Source: a virus (lineage: Duplodnaviria; Heunggongvirae; Uroviricota; Caudoviricetes). Taken from it: a stretch of 7,411 bases of DNA. Positions 473 to 7,154 of the stretch are shown here, in pieces. Location of the stretch: the IMG/VR virus record IMGVR_UViG_2698536341_000008. One strand, written 5' to 3'. The position numbers were made by a program, and so were the translations under genes. The notes under the pieces were generated by a model. The model saw only the letters and a program-made list of their open reading frames with translations. It searched no databases and was not told where the DNA came from. Position 1 is the stretch's first letter. Every line of letters begins with the position of its first letter.

Positions 473-754
473 TTAGTGATGTTCTTTGCCCTTCTGTTTG
501 CCTGTTCTGACCTGTTCCCACTCGATACGTCCTTCTTCTCGTCTTTTGTCTATGTATTCCGCAAGATCCTGAATATTGATGCAACGTTTTGCTTTTTGTG
601 ATGTGCCGATGCGATATGTTGGAACGGGCAACTTACAAGCGTTTGCTTTTGCTTCTGCTGTGGCTGGACTCATACCAAAGTACTTTTGGCTAACTGCTGA
701 GAGTTCAATGTTTGAGGTATTGAATTCAGCCATCAGTAAAAACAAGGTGTTCAT
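473..754 (-). CDS. Excisionase-like (Xis/RDF-type) small DNA-binding protein, about 93 aa; start uncertain, ORF track extends to 829 with a TTG start
   Basis: Segment SQKYFGMSPATAEAKANACKLPVPTYRIGTSQKAKRCINIQDLAEYIDKRRE follows the pattern I recall for small winged-helix excisionases (Tn916 Xis-like layout). Preferred start ATG 754 has GGAGAA 5-6 nt upstream; the 829 start would overlap the upstream gene by 35 nt. Last gene of the leftward operon, followed by a terminator. Family assignment is from memory, not a search. Confidence 0.45.
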   Translation of the reverse strand: MNTLFLLMAEFNTSNIELSAVSQKYFGMSPATAEAKANACKLPVPTYRIGTSQKAKRCINIQDLAEYIDKRREEGRIEWEQVRTGKQKGKEHH

Positions 755-794: not shown

Positions 795-1661
795 TTAATT
801 AATAGCATCTTTGCTCTGAAGTACAGCAAATGCCATTAATACCTCTAAAGTATATCGTCTATAAAACTTAACGAATCCAACATAAAAAACATAGACGAAG
901 AAAAAGCTAAGTAGCGTCGAAATAGAAATATAAGACACCGCCCCACCTTCTATAGCACGATAAATTAATGTTAGAAATGATATCCAAAATGTAATTACAA
1001 ATACTAAACAAATATTTCTGCAAAAACCATATAATGCAACATAGTTTTGAATTTTTGTTTGATGTTGATTAGAAAATTCATAGACGTAATGATAAGCCAA
1101 TCTGAAAAGATCATCATGAAGACCTGTCCTGATGTTTAATAATTTATCGTCTATTCTGAATTTTTTTTCATAACCTTCTTTGATCATTAGCCATGTGGTA
1201 TTAGCTAATTGAAATGGCAATGATTGTGAATAACATAGTTTTTGAGTGGCGTAATCCCATGGTATTATCGGGAATAACATTACTTTGATTATGCAGTATT
1301 TTATTTTTCTCTTTGTGTCTTCGTTCTGTTTGTCACTTGATGGTGTTAAGACGTTTTTTTTGTCATCTGATAACTTATTAAATAGATATTCTGACGGATA
1401 TTGCAATTCTTCGTTCATATATTTTTCAATAAAAAATGCGGATGTGATAGATATAAAGTGTCCAGCTATGTAAGATATGATTACTATTGAACCATAGTTC
1501 AAAATGCCAAAGATTTGACTTTGACCTCTGAGCAATTCAGTTAAGTCAATAACAATATCTAGATCGAATGTCAAACCACAGAAATACATTAATAGGATAA
1601 AAAAACCACCTGGTATTAAATATCCAAGAAAGTCATAGAATGAGAATGGATTTTGATTCAT
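795..1661 (-). CDS. Integral membrane protein of unknown function (about 288 aa, two N-terminal and two C-terminal hydrophobic helices flanking a ~140-aa soluble domain); AT-rich moron
   Basis: Long minus-strand ORF. ATG at 1661 with GGAGAG 5 nt upstream (track start 1685 is TTG). Four hydrophobic segments, e.g. FLGYLIPGGFFILLMYFCGL, IFGILNYGSIVIISYIAGHFISITSAFFI, LYGFCRNICLVFVITFWISFLTLIY, ISISTLLSFFFVYVFYVGFV. GC content roughly 25-30% versus about 50% in flanking genes. Confidence 0.7.
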   Translation of the reverse strand: MNQNPFSFYDFLGYLIPGGFFILLMYFCGLTFDLDIVIDLTELLRGQSQIFGILNYGSIVIISYIAGHFISITSAFFIEKYMNEELQYPSEYLFNKLSDDKKNVLTPSSDKQNEDTKRKIKYCIIKVMLFPIIPWDYATQKLCYSQSLPFQLANTTWLMIKEGYEKKFRIDDKLLNIRTGLHDDLFRLAYHYVYEFSNQHQTKIQNYVALYGFCRNICLVFVITFWISFLTLIYRAIEGGAVSYISISTLLSFFFVYVFYVGFVKFYRRYTLEVLMAFAVLQSKDAIN

Positions 1662-1769: not shown

Positions 1770-2294
1770 TTACGACTCAGTTAACTCTTTAAAGCGTTCC
1801 ATAAACATCCCATAGGCATGGCCTGGCGACAGTGGAATAACTTTGAACATCTCTGTTGCCGGGATACCTTCCAGTACAGGCCAGAAAGAGCCATCATCAA
1901 GCCCGAGATCGCGGCGTTCGGTTGCCAGCATGATGAGATCGGCATATTTCACAGGCGTGCTCATAACCGTGGGTAACCCGTATTTCTCACGGATTACGGC
2001 GTCTATTTTTTCTTCCATCCGTTTATAGTCAGGAAGAAGACGTTTCAGCGGCGTGGGGATGTCCTGGCAATACGCTTCTGTTGCATCATGCATTAACGCT
2101 TCAAAAGCAAATTCCTGCGGCACCAGCTGGCTGCAAAGCACCGCATGTTGGGCGACACTGTAGAAGTGTGAAAGATGACCGGCAAAGCGACAGATATTTG
2201 AAAGGGAAACCGCGATATCGTTAATCACGATGTCGTCTTTATTTATCCTGTCATAATAAAAATGCTTCCCGGAAAAAGTTTTAATAAATGACAT
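1770..2294 (-). CDS. HD-domain phosphohydrolase, YfdR-like 5'-deoxynucleotidase family (prophage-encoded)
   Basis: HD signature ...FEALMHDATEAY... plus upstream His-containing motif (RFAGHLSHFYSVAQHAV). ATG 2294 (MSFIKTF...) has GGAG 6 nt upstream; track start 2324 is GTG, 10 codons further up. Family recalled from memory. Confidence 0.7.
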   Translation of the reverse strand: MSFIKTFSGKHFYYDRINKDDIVINDIAVSLSNICRFAGHLSHFYSVAQHAVLCSQLVPQEFAFEALMHDATEAYCQDIPTPLKRLLPDYKRMEEKIDAVIREKYGLPTVMSTPVKYADLIMLATERRDLGLDDGSFWPVLEGIPATEMFKVIPLSPGHAYGMFMERFKELTES

Positions 2295-2387
2295 TTTGTT
2301 CTCCGCGTATATGTGCTGCACCACGCTGAATTCTGGTAAAAGGAAGCCCTCACCATCCGGCGATTATTGAGTCAATTACGTTTCCAT

Positions 2388-2409
2388 AAATGCCCCCGCA
2401 GGGGCATTT
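2388..2409. other. Perfect 9-bp hairpin (AAATGCCCC-CGCA-GGGGCATTT) in the intergenic region, no adjacent U-tract
   Basis: Inverted repeat read directly: 2388-2396 pairs with 2401-2409, 4-nt loop. No T-run on either strand, so not a canonical terminator; possible processing or protein-binding site. Confidence 0.4.
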
Positions 2410-2421
2410 GCAGTAATGAAA

Positions 2422-3246
2422 TCAGGCGGTGAAAGTACCAATAAAGGTTTCTACTTTGCTGTCTTTGAATTTCTCAACAAGCAGATCACGAAATTCGTTA
2501 GCCATTTCTTCCTGCACCGCCTCCAGCTGAATAATGCGCAGAACCAGTACAGGACGATCGCCAGTGATAATGCTGAGGCGTAATTTAAATGGACGTTCTT
2601 TCAGACCTTCAAACGGAACGCATTTAAATTCAAATGCCACTGGCATAATATCTTTGGTTTTCGCTTCGACAGACTCCATCAGGGAGCGTTTGCCGCTGAA
2701 GTCATTATCTTCAAAATCAGCGGTCTGGTTTGCTTCAATCGTGATTTTACGGACAGCCGCAGCCGCTTTTGTTGCCTGAATAGCGTCACCATTAGCATCA
2801 AAGCCCACAAGGTAGTCGGCCCAGTCTTCAATCCATTCTGCCAGTGACTTCTGGGAATGACGCTCGCCATTAACAGACAACAGAGCAGAGAACGGTGCTG
2901 TCTTTTTCAGTTTGAGAGTGGCAGTGTTATCTGCGTGACCTGGCTCATCAATAGTACCCAGGTTAAGCACACTGACGGCACGCATATTATCGGCATCGAT
3001 AAAGCAGCGGGTGCCTTCATCTGCAAGATCTTTAGAATAACGAGTAAAGTCATCGATGCTGGCAGTGGAAAGCGCACCACGGAAACGGAAACGATTTAAA
3101 TTAAATTTTTCCAGATCATGAATGCGGAAATTCTCAGGCAATGCCACAGCATCGGCACCAATCTTACTGATAATTTCATTAACACCCTGAGCAGAAATAA
3201 GGGCATGGATTTGATTAATTGCGGTTGCGTCTAAGTTCTGAGACAT
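2422..3246 (-). CDS. DUF2303-family prophage protein, YfdQ-like (274 aa)
   Basis: Uninterrupted 274-aa ORF; ATG 3246 with GAGGA 6 nt upstream. Length and sequence resemble my memory of E. coli prophage protein YfdQ; function unknown. Confidence 0.65.
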
Positions 3247-3674: not shown

Positions 3675-3722
3675 TTTGCTGCTCCTCATCATATCGACCC
3701 TGCAAGGTCGGTTGGTTTCTCC

Positions 3723-3811
3723 ACAAAACAGAGAAGAACACCTGCGGTGGCAGCCGCCCGGATGGATTGGGTTATGAGCCCGTCGGCCGGTGATGCTCTT
3801 CTCTGTTTTGT
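3723..3811. repeat. 15-bp perfect inverted repeat (ACAAAACAGAGAAGA ... TCTTCTCTGTTTTGT) forming a long stem with a 59-nt structured loop
   Basis: Read directly: 3723-3737 is the exact reverse complement of 3797-3811. Lies immediately downstream (minus-strand sense) of the leader terminator U-tract and about 35 nt upstream of the RBS of the 120-aa gene. Confidence 0.8.
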
Positions 3812-3857
3812 AAAAAGAGCGGTACCAGCCGGAAGCAAGTGTACAAACTGGTACCGC
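3811..3857 (-). terminator. Candidate intrinsic terminator inside the early-left leader (10-bp GC-rich stem GCGGTACCAG/CTGGTACCGC followed by UCUUUUUA on the minus strand)
   Basis: Perfect 10-bp inverted repeat 3819-3828 / 3848-3857 with a 19-nt loop; plus-strand A-run 3811-3818 gives the U-tract on the minus-strand transcript. The loop is longer than in typical terminators, so efficiency is uncertain. Confidence 0.5.
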
Positions 3858-4288
3858 CAAAGCAGTGGCTGTTGTGGTGACCGGTGCTGATCTCCGGCTT
3901 GCGGTTATTTCAGACTCTCACGGGCGTTTAATTGCCCCGCCGAACAGCTCTTTTCCGCAATAGCTGCAATGTCTTTCGCGCATCAGCCTGCGCATTCACC
4001 ACAACGCTGAGAGCACTTAGCCAGTTACGGCACCACACTTTGTCGCGGTTCCATAAATGCCCTCATCGTTGCACCCTGGTCTCTTCCCAGGTGTCAAACC
4101 GAACCGCCACGCTGGTTAGGCGTCTTATCAGCATCATCATTGACTTGCACATTCCGGCTACCTGGTTTGTTTGCTCGAGCAAGGAGTGGATTGTCCCCTT
4201 TAACGTCCCCAGACCGCTAACGACGCATGTGCCATACGCCGTGTTACAACCAAATTTTGTTAGTACCTTGTTTGTTTGTCTGGAAAGA

Positions 4289-4341
4289 AAGATAAAATGA
4301 AGTTGCGCATTATGCAAGTGTTTTTATTGCGAGATATGCAA
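4289..4341 (-). promoter_or_regulatory. pL-like early-left promoter with two operator-like 15-bp sites (OL)
   Basis: Two copies of TTGCG-N5-(A/T)GCAA-type imperfect palindromes at 4303-4317 (TTGCGCATTATGCAA) and 4327-4341 (TTGCGAGATATGCAA), matching a site in the cI-cro intergenic region (5110-5124). On the minus strand: -35 TTGCAT (4312-4317), 17-nt spacer, -10 TATCTT (4289-4294). Confidence 0.45.
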
Positions 4342-4396: not shown

Positions 4397-5089
4397 TTAA
4401 TTGTGTCGCTTAAGGGTTTGTGACTGGCTGATTAAGACCTTTCCAAAGACCATAAACCGGTGTTCATTTTCGCTGGTAATTCCCCATTCACGGTAAATCT
4501 GGTTATCAGAAATCACCAGTAGTTTGTCAGGTATCATTTGCAGTCGTTTGACATAAATTTTATCATCAAAACCAAATACATAGATACCATCTCCATCAAA
4601 CTGATTGATACTGACATCAACGAAGATGAGATCTCCTGGCTCAATGGTTGGACACATACTGTCCCCACGAACGTTGATAACTTTAATGTGATTGGCTGGC
4701 CGTCCGCCAAACATCGATACAGCATTATCAGTTCTGTATTCAATGGCATGAATCACATCAATGACATCACCGCCCTGGATAAGGCCATTTCCCGCACTGG
4801 CACTGACATCCAGCATTTCAATACGGAATACATCCTTCACCTGCGCAACATCCTCACTAATACTGTTTTTAAATACAGTATTACTTTTGACGTCTGAGGT
4901 AAAGAGATCAGCAATATCAACACCTAAGCTCCTGGCAATATTACTCAGGGCTTGTTCAGTGAATTGTTTCTGCTTACCTGTTTCCAGGCGTGAGATATTC
5001 GCCGCATCCACTCCTATTGCTTCAGCGAGATCGGCGATTTTCATGTTCTTCGCCTGGCGAAGTTGTCTGACTCGGTTTCCTATGTTCAT
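4397..5089 (-). CDS. cI: CI/LexA-type prophage repressor: N-terminal XRE-family HTH plus C-terminal S24 peptidase (autocleavage) domain, 230 aa
   Basis: N-terminus IGNRVRQLRQAKNMKIADLAEAIGVDAANISRLETGK resembles 434/P22 repressor HTH. C-terminal domain carries the Ser/Lys dyad motifs GDSM (..VRGDSMCPTIEPGDLIFVD..) and ..YVKRLQ.. / ..FGKVLIS... Candidate Ala-Gly cleavage site in the linker (SASAGNG). Divergent from the cro-like gene. Confidence 0.9.
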   Translation of the reverse strand: MNIGNRVRQLRQAKNMKIADLAEAIGVDAANISRLETGKQKQFTEQALSNIARSLGVDIADLFTSDVKSNTVFKNSISEDVAQVKDVFRIEMLDVSASAGNGLIQGGDVIDVIHAIEYRTDNAVSMFGGRPANHIKVINVRGDSMCPTIEPGDLIFVDVSINQFDGDGIYVFGFDDKIYVKRLQMIPDKLLVISDNQIYREWGITSENEHRFMVFGKVLISQSQTLKRHN

Positions 5090-5186
5090 GCGTTTATTAC
5101 ATTTCTTTATTGCGCGTTAAGCAAATCAACTTGCGCAAAATATTTGCGTGAAATAATATGCTCATCACGCAATATGTGGAGGTAAT
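5090..5186. promoter_or_regulatory. Divergent PRM/PR-like promoter-operator region between repressor and cro-like gene
   Basis: Operator-like site TTGCGCGTTAAGCAA at 5110-5124 plus TTGCG repeats at 5131-5135 and 5144-5148. Candidate PR: -35 TTGCGC (5131-5136), 17-nt spacer, -10 TAATAT (5154-5159). GGAGG (5178-5182) precedes the cro ATG. No Shine-Dalgarno precedes the repressor ATG. Confidence 0.6.
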
Positions 5187-5447
5187 ATGCAATCACCATT
5201 ACGGAATGTGCGTAAGACGCACGGATTTACTTTGCAGCATGTTGCTGCTGGCGTTCAGGTCAATCCAGCGACGCTGAGTCGTATTGAAAGACTGGAACAA
5301 ATTCCATCTATCGATCTTGCAGAACGTCTGGCCAATTTTTTTAAGGGTGAAATCAGCGAAATGCAGATTCTTTATCCGGCACGTTTTCAATCTAGCCAAA
5401 ACCAGAATGGGTTTAAACCACAGGAACAGGAGGTAAGCCGTGGGTAA
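5187..5447 (+). CDS. cro: Cro-like XRE-family HTH regulator (86 aa)
   Basis: HTH segment FTLQHVAAGVQVNPATLSRIERLEQ; GGAGG 4 nt upstream of ATG; divergent from the repressor; 3' end overlaps the next gene start by 8 nt. Confidence 0.8.
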   Translation: MQSPLRNVRKTHGFTLQHVAAGVQVNPATLSRIERLEQIPSIDLAERLANFFKGEISEMQILYPARFQSSQNQNGFKPQEQEVSRG

Positions 5448-5997
5448 TCATAACTGGAAAGTGGAAAAACAGCCTGAGTGGTACGTGAAAGCTGTCAGAA
5501 AAACTATCGCGGCGTTGCCGGAGGGTTACGCTGAAGCTGCTGAGTGGCTGGATGTAACAGAGAACGCATTATTTAACCGCCTTCGTGCCGATGGCGATCA
5601 GATTTTCCCGCTGGGATGGGCAATGATTTTACAACGTGCTGGTGGCACTCACTTCATTGCTGACGCTGTGGCGCAGTCTGCAAATGGCGTCTTTGTGTCT
5701 CTTCCTGACGTCGAGGATGTGGACAATGCCGATATTAACCAGCGTTTACTGGAAGTCATTGAACAGATCGGCAGTTATTCAAAACAGATTCGTTCAGCAA
5801 TCGAAGACGGTGTAGTGGAACCGCATGAGAAGACAGCAATTAACGACGAACTGTATCTTTCAATTTCGAAGCTCCAGGAGCATGCAGCACTGGTCTACAA
5901 AATCTTCTGCGCTCCAGAAAATAGTAACGCCCGCGAGTGTGCAGCTCCGGGCGTCGTGGCGTCGATTGCTTCTGGTTGTGGAGAAACTAACGCATGA
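5440..5997 (+). CDS. CII-position regulatory protein (185 aa) with HTH-like segment; function inferred from position only
   Basis: GTG start 5440 preceded by AGGAGG (5428-5433) with a 6-nt spacer; translationally coupled to cro upstream and to the next gene downstream (ATGA overlap at 5994-5997). HTH-like stretch AEAAEWLDVTENALFNRL. Family not confidently recognised. Confidence 0.6.
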   Translation: MGNHNWKVEKQPEWYVKAVRKTIAALPEGYAEAAEWLDVTENALFNRLRADGDQIFPLGWAMILQRAGGTHFIADAVAQSANGVFVSLPDVEDVDNADINQRLLEVIEQIGSYSKQIRSAIEDGVVEPHEKTAINDELYLSISKLQEHAALVYKIFCAPENSNARECAAPGVVASIASGCGETNA

Positions 5998-7154
5998 ATA
6001 GTTTAACGGCAAATAACCGTTTGTCGCAACAGCTGGTGGTCAGCGTCGCTGAACACCTGTTGTTACGGCATGAATGCAGATTACCAAATCACCTGGCTGT
6101 AAGTAACCACAGAGAACTTTACCTGACTGTGGGGGGCGAGTTGTGCAGGAACTTAACCGCTGGTTTCGTGACGGAAGAGGGCTTTATGTCCATGTTATTC
6201 GTTGGGAGCCAGAAACACAGCGCGTTATCTATCTTCGCAAAGACTACCCGCATGAGTGCTTTAGTCCTTTGTGGAAATTCAGGCGTGATTTTGTTGAGTG
6301 TGAAGGACCACCAGCATATTGATTCTGCAATTCCGGGACGTTACACTGCTCAGGCACCTTATAAAGCGGGTGCCGGGATTGGCGTCCTGAAATTGTCAAC
6401 GGCGATGTATGACGCGCCAGCGTCTTTTTTATCGTCCGCATTTGCTCACATCCAGATTATGGTGGGCTGGGCGGGGGCACCGAAAGGTGCGCCGGTCTCC
6501 GTTGACGCCGGTTACGCCAACCCCGTCCAGTTCACCACCAGTGAAATTGGCGTTTCCGGTGGTGGAAGTTTTTCACTGTCAACGGAGGCTGCCATCATGG
6601 CTACGATCCCAGCCCTCACTCAACCTGAAATCACCATTGACAACGGCCAGGCCGTTACCACTTCTTTGGCTGTTGCCAACTTCTTCTCCAAGCGTCACGA
6701 CGATGTGCTGAAAAAGATCCGCACTCTGGATTGTTCCCCAGAGTTTTGTGCCCGCAATTTTGCGGAGACATCGATTTCGGTAAATCAACCGAACGGTGGT
6801 ACACGCAAGCTCCCTTGCTATCAAATCACACGAGACGGTTTTGCGTTTCTTGCTATGGGTTTCACGGGTAAACGTGCTGCCCGGTTCAAAGAGGCATACA
6901 TAAATGCCTTTAACCAGATGGAGAAACAGCTTTCAAAGCCCGCTGTACCGAGCGACGTTGCACATAACGCCAGCGTTCTCTGTTCCTACATTTCATCAAT
7001 TCATCAGGTCTGGCTGCAGCAGCTTTATCCTATGTTGGCAAAAGCCGAATCTCCGCTGGCTGTTAGCTTATATGACTATATTAATGATGCTTCGGCGCTG
7101 GCCTGTCTCATAAATTTGTCGCTGAACCCTTCAGAGGTAAGGGGGCGCAAATGA
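5994..7154 (+). CDS. Rha-family phage regulatory protein (Rha domain in residues ~202-310) with an unusual ~200-aa N-terminal extension; alternative start at ATG 6597 would give a 186-aa Rha-only protein
   Basis: Rha signature as I recall it: TQPEITIDNGQAVTTSLAVANFFSKRHDDVLKKIRTLDCSPEF...YQITRDGFAFLAMGFTGKRAARFKEAYINAFNQME. ATG 5994 overlaps the upstream stop (ATGA). Frame 0 stays open with strong G-first periodicity over 6323-6596. A near-perfect internal RBS (GGAGG 6584-6588, 8-nt spacer) precedes Met-202 exactly at the Rha domain start. Confidence 0.6.
   Translation: MNSLTANNRLSQQLVVSVAEHLLLRHECRLPNHLAVSNHRELYLTVGGELCRNLTAGFVTEEGFMSMLFVGSQKHSALSIFAKTTRMSALVLCGNSGVILLSVKDHQHIDSAIPGRYTAQAPYKAGAGIGVLKLSTAMYDAPASFLSSAFAHIQIMVGWAGAPKGAPVSVDAGYANPVQFTTSEIGVSGGGSFSLSTEAAIMATIPALTQPEITIDNGQAVTTSLAVANFFSKRHDDVLKKIRTLDCSPEFCARNFAETSISVNQPNGGTRKLPCYQITRDGFAFLAMGFTGKRAARFKEAYINAFNQMEKQLSKPAVPSDVAHNASVLCSYISSIHQVWLQQLYPMLAKAESPLAVSLYDYINDASALACLINLSLNPSEVRGRK

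Follow-up and report, generated by a model that had tools for sequence, protein, structure and literature searches.

The genes yfdP, yfdQ and yfdR are found in this order in CPS-53 (KplE1), the prophage remnant of Escherichia coli K-12. YfdR is annotated there as a 5′-deoxynucleotidase and YfdQ as a DUF2303 protein, and the order continues with yfdS (DUF551) and yfdT. The yfdQ-yfdR-yfdS-yfdT segment was isolated as a multicopy suppressor of hda-185 (Noguchi and Katayama 2016; PMC4776307). In that study multicopy yfdQ and yfdR together with either yfdS or yfdT were the minimal set that inhibits initiation at oriC, yfdP was dispensable, and K-12 YfdR was found to bind DnaA domain I via Phe46. 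A 2025 paper describes the cluster as common in lambdoid early-left operons and assigns no known function to its latter two genes, which are considered unlikely to be hidden recombination genes, as phage ArgO145 has the cluster together with a full recombination (Rec) module (PMC12315714). The same three genes are present in the DNA analyzed here, a 7,411-nucleotide (nt) stretch of the Caudoviricetes record IMGVR_UViG_2698536341_000008 from IMG/VR (the window). Positions 1770–3246 of the window cover yfdQ and yfdR, which close the three-gene early-left cassette yfdP-yfdQ-yfdR of a lambdoid prophage:

1770–2294, minus strand: yfdR, HD-domain 5′-deoxynucleotidase, 174 amino acids (aa)
2422–3246, minus strand: yfdQ, DUF2303 protein, 274 aa
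3312–3674, minus strand: yfdP, 120 aa, PHROG 204 and Pfam family PF27127 (precomputed)

The proteins are 99% (YfdP), 99% (YfdQ) and 95% (YfdR) identical to those of CPS-53. The two loci differ in what surrounds the cassette. Where CPS-53 continues with yfdS and yfdT, the window has a 288-aa AT-rich gene for a predicted membrane protein and an excisionase gene (xis), and CPS-53 has neither an immunity region nor a structured leader upstream of yfdP. The cassette is also found in mEp460, SfV, cdtI and Shiga toxin (Stx) phages; RefSeq names all three genes yfdP, yfdQ and yfdR; and the DNA of the cassette is present at a coverage of at least 80% in 2456 of 5426 complete E. coli genomes. The module is therefore already known and annotated. 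Its presence here matters little by itself, as the genes are annotated, are widespread in prophages and have been the subject of work in K-12.

An initial annotation of the window had named only yfdR and yfdQ. Both open reading frames are real and lie on the minus strand at the positions given above, and the assignments to a YfdR-like HD 5′-deoxynucleotidase (PHROG 318, PF12917) and a YfdQ-like DUF2303 protein (PF10065, PHROG 210) are borne out, as is the recurrence of the genes in CPS-53/KplE1 in the order yfdP-yfdQ-yfdR-yfdS-yfdT. It had also called the function of the pair uncharacterised in a phage context. This is only partly right, because the K-12 copies have been studied with respect to DnaA binding and oriC inhibition (PMC4776307) and the cluster has been noted (PMC12315714). 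Absent from the initial annotation were the third gene, yfdP, a terminator-like hairpin and leader upstream of it, and a hairpin between yfdQ and yfdR.

Linkage of yfdP, yfdQ and yfdR, and their products

Gene linkage was scanned with one genome per species, which gave 80 loci with YfdQ identities from 99% down to 41%, and in 80 IMG/VR loci. The first IMG/VR scan returned near-identical loci only and the second, with divergent queries, was still mostly enterobacterial; diverse loci were supplied by the genome collection and by annotated phage records. A YfdP homologue is directly upstream of YfdQ in all 79 assessable genome loci (the 80th ends at a contig edge) and in 80 of 80 IMG/VR loci. It is likewise the open reading frame just upstream of YfdQ in eight of eight distant annotated phages, with E-values of 1e-19 to 3e-48. 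These phages are ArgO145, Vibrio 34E29.1, Vibrio D93, Xanthomonas CP2, Pseudomonas PG1, Thalassomonas BA3, Psychrobacter Psymv2 and Acinetobacter fJoAci01.

The distribution of YfdR is different. A YfdR homologue is downstream of YfdQ in about 59 of the 80 genome loci and is present in about 67 of the 80 IMG/VR loci, but is adjacent in none of the eight distant phages. It is missing from all eight genome loci with the most divergent YfdQ and from 13 enterobacterial loci. The divergent loci without YfdR belong to Marinobacter, Photobacterium, Hahella, Kistimonas, Pontibacterium and an unclassified metagenome-assembled genome. YfdR beside YfdQ was seen here only in loci labelled Enterobacterales, with the exception of two (L130 and L137) labelled as other taxa. 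Viewed from phage records, YfdQ homologues occur in 184 and YfdR-family proteins in 336. Among the latter are large virulent phages that infect Caulobacter, Bacillus or Stenotrophomonas, none of these host groups being listed for the 184 YfdQ-bearing records. Thus the two families have largely separate distributions, and the YfdR family is widespread without YfdQ.

YfdP and YfdQ form a two-gene unit that does not vary between distantly related phages. Since YfdP is constant beside YfdQ while YfdR varies, the first two form the unit and YfdR is a separate add-on, i.e. an optional independent module that joined YfdP-YfdQ in enterobacterial lambdoid phages. An immediately upstream YfdP (PHROG 204/PF27127) is proposed here as a feature of the DUF2303/YfdQ family, and the window displays it. 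The functional pairing of yfdQ with yfdR in the initial annotation is not upheld by the neighborhood analysis, which gives YfdP as the invariant partner and YfdR as facultative. The unit to study is yfdP-yfdQ and not yfdQ-yfdR.

In five loci (L095, L096, L097, L108 and L136, from Atlantibacter, Serratia, Symbiopectobacterium, Acerihabitans and Limnobaculum) yfdQ and yfdR are separated by an extra gene. Its product is 175–369 aa long and displays tandem GTGITSLPEGLSVGGSLDL leucine-rich-type repeats in variable number.

The yfdP-yfdQ unit sits among DNA replication and recombination genes. Its neighbors include genes for SSB, a DEDDh/Rv2179c-like exonuclease, RecT, Erf and RecE, and in loci without YfdR the gene after yfdQ often encodes SSB, with a C-terminal DDIPF tail, or the Rv2179c-like/DEDDh exonuclease. 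The order is gam-recT-exo-ssb-yfdP-yfdQ in ArgO145 and erf-recE-yfdP-yfdQ in BA3. In CP2, yfdP-yfdQ is followed by erf, exonuclease, endonuclease and ssb genes, and in Vibrio 34E29.1 a DnaQ-like exonuclease gene precedes yfdP, yfdQ and ssb. Some of these phages thus carry the unit together with a known annealing protein, so the unit probably does not stand in for one.

The YfdQ aa sequence matches PF10065 (DUF2303) at residues 7–272 of 274 and profile positions 2–269 of 269 (E = 1.2e-92), and PHROG 210 with an E-value of 1.9e-120. A set of 1.84 billion proteins yields 1783 DUF2303 representatives at 50% identity; the top 150 of these are single-domain proteins, mostly of about 250–300 aa, with a few shorter fragments. 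The structure of a YfdQ homologue from a Xanthomonas phage, a CP2-like podophage, has been solved (PDB 9o7m) and has 36 chains. Full-text literature searches found no paper that describes it; a preprint on ΦXacm4-11 was considered as the source and rejected, as its phage is another one, T7-like, and its PDB codes differ. No YfdP homologue was found in the PDB, thus 9o7m contains none. The AlphaFold2 (AF2) model of YfdP (predicted local distance difference test score, pLDDT, 66) shows a long helix and a three-stranded sheet and has no match to a known fold, and the AF2 model of YfdQ gave no significant fold match. Neither protein displays sequence or fold similarity to the known annealing proteins Rad52/RecT/Erf, Sak4 and Gp2.5. 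Both are acidic, with isoelectric points (pI) of 5.0 and 5.7.

The yfdR open reading frame spans positions 1770–2324 on the minus strand when read from a GTG at 2324. The true start is probably the ATG at 2294, which is also the RefSeq choice, because GGAG precedes this ATG whereas the GTG has no Shine-Dalgarno sequence. The translated sequence is similar over its full length to PHROG 318, deoxyribonucleoside 5′ monophosphate phosphatase (E = 8.5e-109), and narrowly passes the Pfam YfbR-like model PF12917, at residues 51–114 only (27.3 bits, cutoff 25.9). It fails the YfbR equivalog NCBIfam NF003009 (22.1 bits against a cutoff of 122), and its closest solved relative is the uncharacterised Atu1052 (PDB 2gz4, E = 1e-11). 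YfdR thus represents a paralogous family and not an orthologue of YfbR. Eight of 173 aligned residues differ from K-12 YfdR. The metal-binding motif of the HD superfamily, H...HD...D, is present as H50, H69-D70 and D119, and residues R36, H50, H69, D70, E73, D78, D119 and E126 are each at least 97% conserved among 95 distinct homologues, down to 50% identity. Conservation of these catalytic residues shows the enzyme site to be under selection. yfdR is then an add-on seen almost exclusively in Enterobacterales, with an intact enzyme site, and since the catalytic residues are conserved, YfdR alone may manipulate the nucleotide pool. As cited in PMC4776307, K-12 YfdR is a structural homologue of YfbR with a much lower nucleotide affinity (Zimmerman 2008) and a weak 5′-phosphohydrolase of deoxynucleoside monophosphates (dNMPs; EC 3.1.3.89 for the dNMP-specific activity).

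Hairpins, leader RNA and the immunity region

Three structured elements accompany the cassette:

2388–2409, minus strand: GC-rich hairpin AAATGCCCC-TGCG-GGGGCATTT, 12 nt after the yfdQ stop codon, in the 127-nt spacer between yfdQ and yfdR
3689–3817, minus strand: structured RNA leader of 129 nt, directly 5′ of yfdP
3812–3858, minus strand: terminator-like hairpin GGCGGTACCAG...CTGGTACCGC followed by TCTTTTT, immediately 5′ of the leader

The leader displays a stem of about 24 base pairs (bp) that encloses two inner hairpins, followed by a conserved GUGGAGAAAC motif and a small hairpin. A covariance model (R1) was built from ten leader sequences. In the window it scores 122.6 bits on the minus strand versus 32.9 bits on the plus strand. 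Across the searched sequences R1 matches the operon strand of 47, including the window and mEp460, always within about 200 nt upstream of yfdP, with scores up to 150 bits versus 41 or less on the opposite strand. In an alignment of 31 leader sequences, which is itself fitted to the R1 model, 97.4% of cells are paired and compensatory changes are seen in 16 of 43 pairs; none of 500 shuffles match, and slid controls are 43–52% paired. The leader is absent from K-12 CPS-53 and from phages in which a gene other than yfdP comes first after the immunity region. An equivalent GC hairpin with a T-run stands before the leader in many other loci. No Rfam family matches the leader at an E-value of 1 or below. 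We would guess that the leader is a control point for early-left transcription as it enters the cassette in phages that lack N.

The hairpin after yfdQ keeps its position but varies in stem sequence in most of 72 distinct loci. It occurs with or without yfdR, including yfdR-less loci at 41–46% YfdQ identity. As it has no clean U-run, it is probably a weak terminator or a stabilizer of the transcript end that bounds the yfdP-yfdQ unit. Together the leader RNA and this hairpin provide concrete handles on early-left control in N-less lambdoid phages.

The window as a whole consists of the immunity and early region of a lambdoid prophage. Many E. coli chromosomes carry prophages about 99.9% identical to it, and its identity to phage mEp460 and several Stx2-converting phages is about 95%. 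Its remaining features are:

473–754, minus strand: PrtN-type excisionase gene (xis)
795–1661, minus strand: AT-rich 288-aa gene
4341–4327 and 4317–4303, minus strand: two operator-like palindromes of 15 bp, TTGCATATCTCGCAA and TTGCATAATGCGCAA, putative oL/pL, just downstream of cI
4397–5089, minus strand: cI-like repressor gene of the S24/helix-turn-helix type (Pfam, PHROG and RefSeq annotation; immunity context)
plus strand: cro-like, cII/YmfL-like and Rha/Ash genes

Transcription on the minus strand has the order cI, yfdP, yfdQ, yfdR, the 288-aa gene and the excisionase gene, with a stretch of about 720 nt free of open reading frames between cI and yfdP. A plus-strand open reading frame at 3932–4300 is annotated in mEp460 but has no Pfam match and no call by the Prokaryotic Genome Annotation Pipeline (PGAP), and is considered doubtful. 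The location of yfdP-yfdQ-yfdR downstream of cI and of the operator-like palindromes fits a pL-type early-left operon, and the early-left position given in the initial annotation is in this respect consistent with the sequence. A consensus scan gave no promoter-like site between the operator palindromes and yfdR. Rec genes are not recognizable within the window by Pfam, PHROG or RefSeq annotation; the prophage is of the kind that has no recognizable Rec module in its early-left operon.

In the cI-cro spacer, at 5106–5150, are palindromes with the same TTGC..GCAA core as those at 4303–4341; the related motif there is TTGCGCGTTAAGCAA. The 15-bp TTGC-N7-GCAA palindromes at the two locations are candidates for oL and oR in this immunity type.

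On the plus strand, an open reading frame at 5994–7154 is given in RefSeq as one 386-aa Rha-family protein. Within it are strong Rfam matches to isrK (62 bits, 6354–6430, plus strand) and to C4 antisense RNA (81 bits, 6455–6542, plus strand), as well as a weak match to the c4 a1/b1 target (6341–6393). These matches coincide with the Pfam Ash segment at residues 117–212. They suggest a putative antisense-RNA immunity circuit of the P1/P7 or Gifsy type that controls the Rha/antirepressor gene, and the N-terminal part of the open reading frame may be non-coding.

The 288-aa gene (29–31% GC), located between yfdR and xis, is predicted to encode a multi-pass membrane protein. It occupies the place of yfdS/yfdT and other genes in CPS-53 and mEp460. 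The protein belongs to PHROG 12528 (unknown function) and displays weak matches to SieB (E = 1.4e-3) and Csx27 (E = 1.8e-5). The gene has the appearance of a moron, possibly for superinfection exclusion.

In E. coli strain E2 the prophage adjoins a truncated tRNA-dihydrouridine synthase gene. In this strain, immediately to the left of the window and at 5120–5692 of the 19-kb locus L001, a gene for a Panacea-domain protein is located at the prophage end and adjoins the truncated gene; no integrase is annotated on that side.

Explanations of the cassette

The explanation favored here, though tentatively and as somewhat less likely than not to be correct, is that the cassette is an accessory of host takeover and DNA metabolism, in which YfdP/YfdQ form an oligomeric component and YfdR damps oriC and dephosphorylates dNMPs. 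Upon derepression, leftward transcription would start from the operator region and pass the terminator-like hairpin and the structured leader. YfdP and YfdQ would be expressed next, and YfdR by read-through of the hairpin after yfdQ. Most likely YfdP and YfdQ would act jointly, as an oligomeric accessory that serves either the replication or recombination of phage DNA or the takeover of host replication. YfdR would occupy DnaA domain I, so that initiation at the host oriC is damped, and would also dephosphorylate dNMPs. Given these roles, the module is read as an accessory of takeover and DNA metabolism and not as a dedicated YfdQ-YfdR pair for nucleotide pools or counter-defence.

Several observations weigh against this explanation, most of them from the K-12 study itself (PMC4776307). 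Deletion of yfdQRST was without effect. Inhibition of initiation appeared only when the genes were supplied in multicopy, and the authors concede that it may be an artefact. Pull-downs gave no high-affinity binding of YfdQ to YfdR or to DnaA. In addition, the inhibition phenotype required yfdS or yfdT, and this prophage has neither: tblastn found no match to either gene in the window or in locus L001, although both are present in mEp460. Thus yfdQ and yfdR of the YfdQRST initiation-inhibitor set are present and the required third gene is absent. Because of this, and because yfdP, the invariant partner, was dispensable in the assay, the published function of initiation inhibitor should not simply be transferred to this prophage. 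By the same absence the prophage provides a natural test of whether the sole published phenotype reflects phage function.

The initial annotation had proposed that YfdR and YfdQ act as a pair, either altering dNMP and deoxynucleoside triphosphate (dNTP) pools early in infection or countering nucleotide-based defences. The purifying selection on the YfdR catalytic residues agrees with this, the occurrence of YfdR-family HD hydrolases in so many phage records, large virulent phages among them, fits a general role in nucleotide metabolism, and the pre-early Dmp of phage T5 is, by its annotation, a functional precedent. However Dmp is not homologous to YfdR, the nucleotide affinity of K-12 YfdR is cited as much below that of YfbR (PMC4776307), and YfdQ is not tied to YfdR, the two families being distributed largely apart and YfdP being the partner that never varies. 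No evidence for counter-defence was found, and there is no defence-related context. A PADLOC scan of YfdP, YfdQ and YfdR gave no match at an E-value of 0.01 or below, which is weak evidence because the PADLOC models cover defence systems and not anti-defence proteins. We consider this proposal unlikely. The position of the cassette, which is that of the recombination genes in lambda, in a window without recognizable Rec genes, gives rise to another proposal, i.e. that YfdP-YfdQ, with or without YfdR, is an unrecognized recombination or repair module, which by annealing DNA or binding its ends would substitute for the missing Rec module. The SSB and exonuclease genes that directly adjoin the cassette in many phages, the large oligomer formed by YfdQ homologues (the 36 chains of 9o7m), the weak sensitivity of a yfdQ deletion to methyl methanesulfonate (MMS) and H2O2 as cited in PMC4776307, and the DNA-associated role suggested by the authors of the JC1 paper all point in this direction. 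Yet ArgO145, CP2, BA3 and JC1 have complete RecT or Erf modules in addition to the cassette, an argument already made in PMC12315714, the YfdP and YfdQ models are unlike the Rad52/RecT/Erf, RecA or Gp2.5 folds, and both proteins are acidic. Replacement of a Rec module is accordingly judged distinctly unlikely.

Mass spectrometry bears on a further proposal, in which YfdQ is a DNA-associated protein packaged in the virion that enters with the genome and, for example, protects DNA ends. The DUF2303 protein gp10 of the Burkholderia podophage JC1 was seen in virions purified on caesium chloride (CsCl), and the high copy number of the solved homologue in 9o7m is compatible with such a role. The gp10 signal is low, however (5 peptides, score 13), and yfdQ is always located in the early/replication region and never among structural genes, which makes a virion protein very improbable. 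The takeover and DNA-metabolism explanation can also be extended, although the extended version is rather doubtful. YfdP-YfdQ would then be an uncharacterised, self-contained phage machine, composed of a small helix-plus-sheet protein and a very large DUF2303 oligomer of unmatched fold, with host replication, or else DNA ends or intermediates, as its target. Gammaproteobacterial phages, both temperate and virulent, and Burkholderia phages known from the literature would carry it beside replication and recombination genes, and the enterobacterial lambdoid phages would have gained YfdR, with its link to DnaA and dNMPs, and a new structured leader RNA that governs how early-left transcription enters the cassette.

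Comparison with known systems

YfbR, the 5′-deoxynucleotidase of E. coli (5DNU family, PDB 2paq), is in the same superfamily of HD-domain metal-dependent phosphohydrolases as YfdR. The H...HD...D motif and the HDAxE-x4-D segment of the two proteins align. The sequence relation is marginal, however (phmmer E = 0.31), and YfdR is nearer to Atu1052.

The T5 Dmp protein, a pre-early deoxynucleoside-5′-monophosphatase, has the same annotated activity as YfdR and is likewise expressed very early. It was considered as a homologue and rejected: BLASTP gives an E-value of 3.8 and Dmp has no HD domain. Dmp is unrelated to YfdR in sequence and is a functional analogue only.

With respect to the leader, the closest known elements are the put RNAs of HK022, which are processive antiterminators of N-less lambdoid phages. 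Like put, the leader is conserved, has several stems and forms part of the early-left transcript in N-less phages, and put-like antitermination in relatives has been raised as a speculation (PMC12315714). The two differ in size and architecture. The leader, of about 129–131 nt, has an outer stem around two inner hairpins, whereas put has about 70 nt and two stems, and R1 scores at most 11 bits against the HK022 early region with filters off. Unlike put, the leader comes after a terminator-like hairpin and not before it, and in the window it has no second copy in 2.3 kb of the rightward operon.

With respect to DnaA, lambda P and Bacillus subtilis SirA are the proteins with which the authors of PMC4776307 compare K-12 YfdR. 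All are reported to bind DnaA and to lower initiation at oriC. Lambda P and SirA are unrelated to YfdR as proteins. Lambda P contacts domain III of DnaA and is also the helicase loader; YfdR, by contrast, binds domain I through Phe46 and is an enzyme.

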